DNA of 64,000 nt, from contig JBAWZD010000002.1 in NCBI GenBank assembly GCA_037143195.1, positions 140,620 to 204,619 on the forward strand, given 5' to 3'. This stretch comes from a bacterium (lineage in GTDB: Bacteria; Patescibacteriota; Minisyncoccia; Phycocordibacterales; UBA9973). The position numbers were made by a program, and so were the translations under genes. Below, in pieces: positions 29,749 to 31,542 of this stretch. The notes beneath the pieces were generated by a model. The model saw only the letters and a program-made list of their open reading frames with translations, was not told the DNA's origin and searched no databases. Within the stretch, counting starts at the first letter, position 1; each line of letters begins with the position of its first letter.

Positions 29749-31542
29749 ATGAAAACAGCACATCGTAGTTTTGCCAGAGCGCCGTTCATCTGTGTTTTTT
29801 TGTTCTTCTTTTATTTCCTGAATCCTATAATGACTCACGCTACCGTGACGCCGTCACTCGGACTCGCGTCCACGTTCGGCGTGCTTTCTGATACGTTTAC
29901 TTCGACTGGAGCATCGAGCACTATCTCAGGCGACGTTGGATATACGACGACTTCTGGTGCATACATTGTGAATAGTGGTACCGATTACGGATCAAGTGCT
30001 CCGTATGCTCAGGCGGGACTTGATCAAGCAACGGCACTGTCGTTACTCAACGCACAAACGTGTACGTTTACATTTTTTGCCGGTGCAGTTGATCTTGCGA
30101 CTGATACGACTCATGGATTGATTGGCGTATATACGCCGGGTGTTTACTGCATTACCGGAGCTGTGTCTGTCGGAACAGGGGGTATCGCACTAAGTGGTGT
30201 TGGGACATATATTTTTCGTAGTAGCGGAGCGCTGACGACCGTTGATAATTCGGTTGTGCATTCTTCAGGCGTATCATCATGTGATGTTTTTTGGACTCCG
30301 AACGGAGCAACGACACTCGGTGCGAATACAACATTTGTTGGAACAGTAATTCCTGTTTCTCAAGATATTACGATCGGAACACTCACGTCGTGGTTCGGAC
30401 AAGCGCTCACATTTGGTCACACGGTGACTATAGATACGAGCAGTATTCATAGTACGTGTAGCGTAGGAACTGATCCTGTGCCAACGGGAATTCTTTCTGT
30501 TGTGAAGCAAGTCGTGAATACTGGTGGAGGCACCGCTCTCGCTTCAGATTTTCAGATGCATGTGAAAAGCGCTGGAAGTGATGTTGTTGGAAGTCCTGAT
30601 GCCGGCATGATTGCTCCTGGGCGCGCATATACTTTGATTGCGCCTGCGACATACACAGTAAGCGAAGATGCAAATGTGTTGTATACACAAAGTTTTTCTG
30701 GCGACTGTGACTCAAGTGGGGTAGTGTCACTGGTGTCGAGCGGTACTCCAACGTGTACTGTCATGAATACGTACATCATTCCAATTGTTCCGCCGACGCC
30801 TGTTTTTCGAAATGTCGGTCACCCACCATTTCCTGTTGTGGTGATTCCGCCGGTCATTGTCCCTCTCACTCTTATTCCAGAAGTCATAGTGCCCGTCACT
30901 CAAATTCTGCCTGTTGATCAAACGACAATCGTCGCTCCGGCCTCAGGTGCTATTACACCAACTCAGGTCCCACTGTTTCCAAACACAGGAATTTCGCCAG
31001 ATGAATCAGTGACCATTCTTGGAAACGACATTATCTCTTTTTTACAAGAATGGATTGTGGTGCGACCTGAGGTGCGCTCAGTGTCGAATGAACCAAATCA
31101 TATGCTGATACCTCTGATTCATTTAGACGTTTCACTTGAATCAATCGGACTTACGAAGAGCGGCGCGCTTGATGTACCAAAAGATTTTAATAACGCTGGT
31201 TGGTTTAACCTCGGTCCTCGTCCGGGAGAACAGGGGAATGCAGTCATCGATGGACATTACGGGTGGAAGAACGGAGTACCTGCTGTTTTTAATTTGATTC
31301 ATACACTTCACACCGGCGACGTTATTTTTGTGAATGATACAAAAGGGAAGACCGTTTCTTTTTCTGTCCGTGAAATCCGAACATATGATTCAGTAATGGA
31401 TGCGCACAGTGTATTTGTCGCATCGGACACGAGTGCTCATCTCGTCATCATTACCTGTAGTGGCGTTTGGGTTCCGTCACTCTCCACGTACTCAAACCGA
31501 CTTGTGATTTTTGCCGACCGTACAATTGCGTCTCCATACTAG
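29749..31542 (+). CDS. surface protein: N-terminal ice-binding-like (DUF3494) domain + Pro-rich linker + C-terminal sortase-like domain
   Basis: signal peptide; LASTFGVLSDTFTSTGASSTISGDVGY (DUF3494-like start); C-terminus AVIDGHYGW ... HLVIITCSG ... NRLVIFADR matches sortase His/Cys(TLxTC)/Arg triad. Confidence 0.6.
   Translation: MKTAHRSFARAPFICVFLFFFYFLNPIMTHATVTPSLGLASTFGVLSDTFTSTGASSTISGDVGYTTTSGAYIVNSGTDYGSSAPYAQAGLDQATALSLLNAQTCTFTFFAGAVDLATDTTHGLIGVYTPGVYCITGAVSVGTGGIALSGVGTYIFRSSGALTTVDNSVVHSSGVSSCDVFWTPNGATTLGANTTFVGTVIPVSQDITIGTLTSWFGQALTFGHTVTIDTSSIHSTCSVGTDPVPTGILSVVKQVVNTGGGTALASDFQMHVKSAGSDVVGSPDAGMIAPGRAYTLIAPATYTVSEDANVLYTQSFSGDCDSSGVVSLVSSGTPTCTVMNTYIIPIVPPTPVFRNVGHPPFPVVVIPPVIVPLTLIPEVIVPVTQILPVDQTTIVAPASGAITPTQVPLFPNTGISPDESVTILGNDIISFLQEWIVVRPEVRSVSNEPNHMLIPLIHLDVSLESIGLTKSGALDVPKDFNNAGWFNLGPRPGEQGNAVIDGHYGWKNGVPAVFNLIHTLHTGDVIFVNDTKGKTVSFSVREIRTYDSVMDAHSVFVASDTSAHLVIITCSGVWVPSLSTYSNRLVIFADRTIASPY

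Follow-up and report, generated by a model that had tools for sequence, protein, structure and literature searches.

Surface proteins that are attached by sortases usually depend on two components in the membrane, a transmembrane (TM)-anchored enzyme and a substrate that is held there by its sorting signal. The sortase cysteine attacks the Thr-Gly bond of the LPxTG motif, and the thioacyl intermediate is resolved by an amine, for example that of the lipid II cross-bridge or of a pilin lysine, as outlined in the review PMC8225981. The same review, citing Di Girolamo et al. 2019, names the housekeeping sortase of Cutibacterium (Propionibacterium) acnes, which recognises LPXTG, as the only biochemically characterised member of class F. 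Here we describe a gene in which both membrane segments are gone and enzyme and substrate are joined through the cleavage site. It lies on a 64,000-nucleotide stretch, in the following called the window, of contig JBAWZD010000002.1 (assembly GCA_037143195.1, positions 140,620 to 204,619, forward strand) from a bacterium of the Candidate Phyla Radiation (CPR; Patescibacteriota, Minisyncoccia, Phycocordibacterales, UBA9973). The open reading frame (ORF) at 29749..31542 on the + strand, placed exactly there by the original prediction from the letters of the stretch, starts with ATG and encodes 597 aa plus stop in the order cargo-FPNTG-sortase. We regard the product, with a probability of roughly 55 %, as a self-contained auto-anchoring surface protein, whose sortase would cleave FPNT/G either within the same chain or on a sister copy and transfer the cargo to an amine of the wall.

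The same linear design, cargo-LPxTG-linker-sortase, is found in STEPL (sortase-tag expressed protein ligation), a man-made in vitro system with a class A sortase. Hedgehog- and intein-type autoprocessing domains and type V autotransporters can be compared by analogy only. In the former, a C-terminal domain of the same chain passes the cargo at the N-terminus to an acceptor by way of a (thio)ester at the junction; in the latter, cargo and delivery machinery are parts of one fused protein. Folds and chemistry are unrelated, and homology is not implied. In STEPL (Warden-Rothman et al. 2013, Anal Chem 85:11090), the tethered sortase reportedly cuts the chain of which it is part and joins the cargo to an amine nucleophile that is supplied. 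A paper citing that work mentions the release of STEPL products from His-resin by triglycine. In full-text searches of the literature, no paper turned up that links a sortase with DUF3494 or describes a substrate-sortase fusion from nature, and for CPR, Patescibacteria or Peregrinibacteria in combination with sortase only general statements that CPR encode sortases were found (PMC6744442). The parts of the present protein, that is DUF3494 head, prealbumin stalk, LPxTG motif, class-F-like sortase and substrate/sortase operon, are known; their arrangement is unusual.

The class-F-type sortase catalytic domain comprises aa 452-597 (31102..31539, + strand) and was assigned with Pfam, NCBIfam and AlphaFold. 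Pfam Sortase PF04203 matches aa 472-591 with an E value of 4.7e-17 and 62.4 bits (cutoff 26.6), and the three motifs that had suggested a sortase in the first place, IDGHYGW, LVIITCSG and NRLVIFADR, are located at aa 500-506, 565-572 and 583-591. The catalytic residues His503 (31255-31257), Cys570 in LVIITC, a cysteine motif of TLxTC type (31456-31458), and Arg584 (31498-31500), all encoded on the + strand, are invariant in 24/24 fusions and in 121-122 of 122 stand-alone relatives. AlphaFold of aa 395-597, based on a 118-sequence alignment, gave a sortase core with pLDDT (predicted local distance difference test) values of 89-97. Compared with solved sortases by Foldseek, this model matched with an E value of 3.5e-11, a probability of 1.00 and a root-mean-square deviation of ~3 Å over ~150 columns. 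A non-sortase barrel, raised by the original prediction as the competing outcome, was thus not found; structure prediction gives the eight-stranded β-barrel fold of sortases, the triad being judged from the sequence. Foldseek of a second model, that of the homologous fusion P0119, returned only sortases and no match to a stalk fold.

With respect to class, the NCBIfam model class_F_sortase (NF033748) scores 104.2 bits, below its curated cutoff of 166 bits, and every other class reaches ≤22 bits. CPR stand-alone sortases that are named class F by NCBI also fall below the cutoff with 109-127 bits. By sequence, the sortase of the fusion is a member of a divergent, class-F-like CPR subgroup. It shares the His-Cys-Arg triad and the LPxTG-type cognate motif with class F sortases and differs in the sub-cutoff score, the absent membrane anchor and the position of the domain behind its own substrate. 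Sequence and fold searches of the PDB gave no class F structure among the matches; the top sortase by sequence was 4d70 with an E value of 0.09. The top Foldseek matches are the lid-bearing class C pilus sortases 3tbe, 4g1j and 2xwg (E ~1e-10 to 1e-11). As in the fusion, the segment preceding β1 of these enzymes carries a motif that could occupy the active-site groove. The class C lid is, however, a DP[FWY] pseudo-substrate that cannot be cleaved as LPxTG, while the corresponding segment of the fusion carries FPNTG and no DP[FWY] lid. With 16.9 bits for the class_C_sortase hidden Markov model (cutoff 160), sequence classification favours class F.

The putative recognition motif FPNTG (aa 410-414; 30976..30990, + strand), identified by conservation and context, is placed exactly at the junction of cargo and sortase, following a Pro/Val linker; the predicted scissile bond is T413/G414. 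In 22 of the 24 fusions the sortase domain is preceded, at a distance of at most 120 residues, by a strict [LF]PxT[GAS], compared to 0.79 expected from composition-preserving shuffles, and elsewhere in these 24 proteins the pattern occurs a single further time. In an alignment of 15 fusions, P411 and T413 never vary and G414 reaches a conservation of at least 90 %, inside a linker that is otherwise hypervariable and unalignable. The extended context P(−2)-x-[LF]PxTG-φ-x-P(+7), where φ is the hydrophobic residue at +5, is common to the fusions (n=22) and to true C-terminal signals of the family (n=99). Pro at −2 is found in 86 % of the former and 94 % of the latter and Pro at +7 in 77 % of both. 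Phe in place of Leu is no peculiarity of the fusion, as it occurs in 16 % of the 99 true signals.

The motif is followed by a linker of 37 aa (aa 415-451; 30991..31101, + strand), which stands in place of the lost TM segments of sorting signal and sortase. AlphaFold places a helix at aa 428-437 (construct residues 34-43) with pLDDT 54-64, and aa 421-439 show a mean hydrophobicity of 1.04 and a helical moment of 0.69. Downstream of aa 414 no 19-residue Kyte-Doolittle (KD) window reaches 1.6, so that the canonical TM segment of a sorting signal is absent. Instead of a charged C-terminal tail ~35-40 residues from the motif, 183 residues follow, including the folded sortase. Lacking TM segment and tail and carrying an internal motif, the fusion falls outside the canonical definition of a sorting signal. 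Its sortase has no N-terminal membrane anchor either, since no TM segment occurs between motif and catalytic domain; the sole N-terminal hydrophobic segment is a signal peptide of cleavable type 420 residues upstream. The distance between motif and sortase varied from 9 to 80 aa in the 11 fusions that were measured.

To what extent the cargo belongs to a sortase substrate family can be read from the unfused relatives. A full-length search retrieved 358 relatives, nearly all from metagenome bins of CPR/Patescibacteria type and mostly without a sortase domain. Of the sortase-less DUF3494 paralogs, 99/204 end in a sorting signal, defined as [LF]PxT[GAS] with a hydrophobic stretch and a K/R tail behind it, all within the final 50 residues, as exemplified by PKLPNTGSVQGENNLPWNIIIFSGVLMLVSTSLVVVLKKCKI. 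The N-terminal part of the fusion therefore belongs to a genuine family of sortase substrates. The nearest relatives of the sortase domain are stand-alone proteins of ~190-240 aa with 45-55 % identity, several of them titled 'class F sortase' by NCBI, from Gracilibacteria, Paceibacterota, Uhrbacteria and Doudnabacteria bins. They possess an N-terminal TM anchor followed by a conserved first strand 'GLPxRLKIPxIxVDA'. In all eight unfused loci that could be resolved (L001, L003, L006, L017, L020, L022, L023 and L024), a DUF3494-LPxTG gene is located upstream of the gene for the stand-alone class F sortase, either adjacent or 1-2 genes away. The statement that sortases are normally separate enzymes holds for this family as well: the closest relatives are stand-alone, TM-anchored and encoded downstream of substrate genes.

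The gene order in the unfused operons equals the domain order in the fusion. Head, stalk types, extended motif and sortase subgroup are shared (for instance with L006, L017, L020, L022 and L024). In contrast to the operons, the fusion is one chain, in which the TM helix and K/R tail of the substrate and the TM anchor of the sortase are gone and the motif has become internal. At the level of sequence this comparison establishes that the fusion arose from an adjacent pair of genes for a substrate and its dedicated class F sortase. The simplest history would be a deletion that reached from within the TM segment of the substrate to just beyond the TM anchor of the sortase and spared the motif. The fusion P0369 retains the opening of the ancestral sorting signal (FPKTGLSPKENNTPWNI...). 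P0342 (367 aa, found in a search of representatives) has TM-like stretches between FPDTG and the sortase domain. It may represent an intermediate stage, or else a substrate/sortase pair that is read through with its membrane segments retained. The fused state is less likely to be ancestral because unfused pairs are far commoner and the fusions are scattered among stand-alone sortases. Together, the fusion as Rosetta-stone evidence and the operons indicate that DUF3494 surface proteins are dedicated substrates of these sortases across CPR lineages.

Two of the unfused operons (L001:6654-13195 and L003:551-4778) encode up to three wall-associated proteins followed by one sortase, a layout like that of Gram-positive pilus islands; the types are DUF3494+PG_binding_1, DUF3494+DUF7507-LPxTG and SpaA_2+DUF7507. 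In a metagenome-assembled genome labelled Saccharibacteria (L018:5366-6619), two DUF3494-LPxTG genes are followed by a 418-aa stop-to-stop frame with a sortase domain at aa 119-273. The C-terminus of this frame consists of LPYTG, an extended hydrophobic segment and RR, apparently a sortase with its own sorting-signal-like tail.

No candidate partner was found near the fusion. A search for LPxTG-like sorting motifs, proposed by the original prediction for the genome and carried out for the 64-kb window, returned the FPNTG of the fusion as the sole motif in a real ORF, and besides the fusion neither a sortase nor an LPxTG-type protein is encoded in any real ORF of the window. Likewise, the ±10 kb around the fusion genes of L009, L010, L012 and L013 contained neither a sortase nor an LPxTG gene, so that fusions were solitary in 5/5 loci examined. 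With no partner nearby, the only evident substrate of the fusion protein is itself. An ORF at 3418-3951 (+, 177 aa) was considered as a second sortase, as it contains the string 'TLVIITC', and was rejected; it has no Pfam match and the string is probably a coincidence.

The architecture recurs. Among the 373 relatives retrieved, 24 are fusions (one odd fragment excluded). A substrate-like adhesin covalently joined to a sortase is atypical, as the original prediction had stated. In a neighbour-joining tree of the sortase domain the fusions fall into ~13 groups; as the tree has no support values and all pairwise distances are ~0.4, this number is an indication and not a count. The distribution hints at several independent origins. 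Stalk domains also vary among the fusions, with SpaA_2, DUF7507, DUF11 and Bact_surface_Ig-like types. One fusion, P0008, derives from a Peregrinibacteria bin. In a scan of species genomes with a single protein as query, the only true fusion was L014, the ortholog with 83 % identity, and the nearest named loci after it were labelled Peribacteria. Five further loci with matches to both domains (L016, L017, L020, L022 and L024) turned out to contain separate, adjacent substrate and sortase genes, and the fragment L023 is likewise unfused. A sixth match of this kind, L015, lies on a frameshifted contig of low quality and was discarded.

NCBI already holds a protein identical to that of the window (P0001, titled 'ice-binding family protein') on a 272-kb contig, and orthologs of the same architecture with 85 % and 83 % identity originate from other samples. 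The ratio of nonsynonymous to synonymous substitution rates (dN/dS) was determined by comparing the window gene with its orthologs L009, which shares synteny with the window, and L011, both from other samples (dS 0.65-1.0). For the whole gene, dN/dS amounts to 0.09-0.15 at dS 0.7-0.85. By segment, it is 0.02-0.06 in the ice-binding-like head, 0.07-0.10 in the SpaA_2-like stalk, ~0.4 in the Pro/Val linker, 0-0.15 in the motif ±5 residues and 0.07-0.13 in the sortase. Low dN/dS, the existence of orthologs and the conservation of motif and triad mark the fusion as a maintained functional gene, neither an assembly artefact nor a pseudogene. The FPNTG at the junction, the recurrence of the architecture and the purifying selection are points that the original prediction had missed.

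The cargo begins with a signal peptide at aa 1-31 (MKTAHRSFARAPFICVFLFFFYFLNPIMTHA / TVTPSLG; 29749..29841, + strand) with a KD hydrophobic stretch at aa 9-31. By the −3/−1 rule, a signal peptidase I site is predicted after T-H-A; an AxA-like site ahead of a conserved (A)TTPSLG is common to fused and unfused paralogs. The ice-binding-like (DUF3494) β-helix head follows at aa 32-240 (29842..30468, + strand). The DUF3494 opening that had been quoted behind the signal peptide, ASTFGVLSDTFTSTGASSTISGDVGY, is found at aa 40-65, and Pfam Ice_binding PF11999 matches aa 49-233 above its cutoff of 28.7 (61.8 bits, E 9e-17). Solved ice-binding proteins align to aa 34-261; the matches comprise 5uyt (E 5e-11) and another 13 chains of ice-binding or antifreeze proteins of the DUF3494 type. 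With 20.6 bits for the NCBIfam equivalog IBP_CFB (cutoff 400), the fusion protein is not an ortholog of a characterised ice-binding protein. By sequence the head is homologous to DUF3494 ice-binding proteins (5uyt, 4nu2, 3uyu), which does not imply that the fusion binds ice. A DUF3494 head with ~45 % identity is also present in the archaeal proteins P0005, P0046 and P0057, the latter labelled Nitrosotalea; PEFG-CTERM tails are annotated by JGI on P0005 and P0046. Occurring with LPxTG tails in CPR and with PEFG-CTERM tails in archaea, the DUF3494 head appears to be a generic surface-displayed module.

A SpaA_2-like stalk with a predicted prealbumin fold occupies aa 241-345 (30469..30783, + strand). 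When the isolated segment aa 236-349 was searched, PF19403 scored 22.4 bits (E 1.8e-4), slightly below its cutoff of 25 bits; the same family is precomputed for many paralogs, and the homologous domains of P0119 were modelled as β-sandwiches with pLDDT >90. The extended linker at aa 346-409 (30784..30975, + strand) contains 15 Pro and 14 Val in 64 residues, in agreement with the Pro-rich linker described earlier, and is presumed to be a wall-spanning stalk. Part of it, aa 358-389, appears hydrophobic in KD windows; as a TM helix it was rejected for being too rich in proline, and unfused paralogs have comparable linkers ahead of LPxTG.

On this basis the following course of events can be proposed for auto-anchoring. 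The precursor would be exported by Sec and its signal peptide removed. As the last part to pass the Sec channel, the sortase domain would fold beside the membrane, the site of lipid II. Cys570 would then attack the T413-G414 bond, either intramolecularly or on an adjacent copy, to give a thioacyl intermediate with the 38.5-kDa head and stalk (aa 32-413). Resolution by an amine of a cell wall precursor or of peptidoglycan would link the cargo to the wall, and the sortase fragment of 20.1 kDa (aa 414-597) would be released after transfer. In such a scheme the covalent tether between enzyme and substrate may replace the co-localisation in the membrane that is otherwise provided by the two lost TM segments. 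In the model of aa 395-597 the FPNTG block is more ordered (pLDDT 75) than its flanks (58 and 54) and forms isolated β-bridges. This may be read as a modest signal, a partial hint, for docking in cis; action in cis is not claimed.

Several points weigh against the proposed auto-anchoring. Self-cleavage and the acceptor are purely inferred, as are removal of the signal peptide, the choice between cis and trans and the identity of the nucleophile. In the AlphaFold model of P0119, whose linker has 9 residues, residues 202-226 including FPNTG have pLDDT <50 and the motif is undocked. Linkers as short as those of P0315 and P0119 (~5-9 residues) may not allow an attack in cis. Such very short linkers favour intermolecular action, at least in those homologs; on action in cis or in trans, the two AlphaFold models disagree. 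P0248 has no motif and P0295 carries FPNAG, both with the triad kept; release of the sortase by the proposed route is impossible there, and the two proteins may represent a non-cleaving variant of the architecture. Further, access to lipid II is uncertain for a protein without a membrane anchor, and the score of the sortase domain stays below the class F cutoff (104.2 versus 166 bits). Finally, the search for other sortases spanned 64 kb of the genome, and a housekeeping sortase or LPxTG substrates are possible elsewhere.

Other explanations have to be compared with auto-anchoring. The simplest, that the fusion is a non-functional accident, in which faulty assembly or sequencing or a recent deletion joined two neighbouring genes into a decaying pseudogene, is effectively refuted. 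Fusions are indeed much rarer than unfused pairs and the related locus L015 is frameshifted; the orthologs with 83-85 % identity from independent samples, however, keep frame and architecture, and an overall dN/dS of 0.09-0.15 and 24 fusions in ~13 tree groups with the triad intact in all are not what decay would leave behind. It also appears rather unlikely that the chain is a polyprotein, in which a separate, membrane-anchored housekeeping sortase would cleave FPNTG and anchor the head. The fused sortase would in that case be co-exported and released, to act in soluble or wall-associated form on other substrates or to be discarded. With 64 kb of the 272-kb contig covered there is room for another sortase, the sortase family is encoded in more than half of the CPR genomes (PMC6744442), and the undocked FPNTG in the P0119 model would suit an external enzyme. 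Against this stand the lack of any other sortase or LPxTG-type protein in the 64-kb window and within ±10 kb at four other fusion loci, and the operons: the sortase that adjoins these substrates in unfused genomes is the dedicated one, with the same domain that is fused here. Moreover, among the best 120 hits listed in each of two sequence searches, the query alone comes with the 271,994-bp contig as the longest.

A pilus-like polymerisation, in which another copy, or another stalk protein, would resolve the intermediate with a lysine or its N-terminal amine to yield covalent DUF3494/SpaA_2 fibres, is unlikely for a window gene that is solitary and has no partner pilin genes nearby. No YPK-type pilin motif was seen by inspection of the sequence. 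In its favour, the SpaA_2-type prealbumin stalk is typical of Gram-positive pilins and unfused operons combine 2-3 LPxTG proteins with one sortase in the manner of pilus islands. Class C pilus sortases also lead the Foldseek matches, but this ranking of classes is weak, as classes E, A and D score almost equally. The same class C matches, lid-bearing and aligned as far as the N-terminal extension, could speak for a trans-acting sortase that is tethered to its stalk and does not cleave itself, with the motif as a lid-like pseudo-substrate or autoinhibitor. Head and stalk would here hold the anchor-less enzyme in or on the wall, and its targets would be other proteins. The partly ordered motif block of the fusion model and the triad of P0248 and P0295, kept without a cleavable motif, would agree. 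A pseudo-substrate would be expected to lose cleavability, however, whereas the full cleavage-site signature with T and G at the scissile bond is kept, and after removal of the signal peptide such a protein would be without any anchor; we consider this tethered form improbable. Least credible among the functional alternatives is an anchor-free, 'loaded' sortase, whose thioacyl intermediate, with head and stalk on Cys570, would diffuse after self-cleavage and could ligate the adhesin to peptidoglycan amines of another cell. Were this very improbable case true, a freely diffusing loaded sortase would provide an episymbiotic CPR bacterium with covalent marking of, or attachment to, the host wall, and it would be the first single-chain, single-turnover sortase in nature with an action between cells.

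If the self-processing assumed for auto-anchoring is correct, the fusion would be a natural counterpart of the engineered self-ligating sortase fusions, and CPR class F sortases would be able to act without a membrane anchor. The mature protein (aa 32-597), predicted at 58.6 kDa, would then offer a compact system to study an uncharacterised sortase class with its motif P-x-[LF]PxTG-φ-x-P and its acceptor in unculturable organisms, and possibly new self-ligating tags. A natural cargo-LPxTG-sortase chain that recurs and is under selection would probably surprise specialists on sortases, even though its mechanism is an inferred one.

The window itself is ordinary chromosome with genes for FtsH, RecG, LigA, tmRNA, tRNAs and a type IV pilus cluster. 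Upstream of the fusion gene lies a divergent tRNA-Ser gene (29502-29589, −) and downstream a convergent gene for a surface protein of 1020 aa, so that the fusion gene is probably transcribed alone, as a monocistronic unit. A σ70-like promoter, TTGACA-18 nt-TATAAT with an extended −10 TG (29651..29680, + strand; 12/12 consensus positions), is located ~70 nt 5' of the start codon. This candidate is suggestive only, given that promoter-like sites are no more frequent in the region than expected from shuffles.

The convergent gene (31848-34910, −) encodes three Flg_new_2 (InlB B-repeat) domains and PG_binding_1 within its 1020 aa. A protein of 217 aa with PG_binding_1 and an fn3-like domain is encoded at 24151-24804 (−), and one of 1344 aa with FG-GAP and CarboxypepD_reg/SpaA domains at 16943-20977 (−). 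Large surface proteins with PG_binding_1 thus encode non-covalent peptidoglycan binding beside the sortase fusion, and these domains would fit a peptidoglycan wall. The type IV pilus assembly cluster at 40760-49470 (+) comprises PilM, a PilB-like T2SSE with MshEN, a PilT-like T2SSE and PilC/T2SSF. It is interrupted by a gene for a PrsW-family protease, and a GH18 glycosidase gene lies just upstream. Among the tRNAs, ARAGORN identified a tRNA-Ile with anticodon TAT (7321-7395, +) and a tRNA-Ser with anticodon ACT (22103-22190, −). Both were confirmed by Rfam, and both anticodons are unusual in bacteria.

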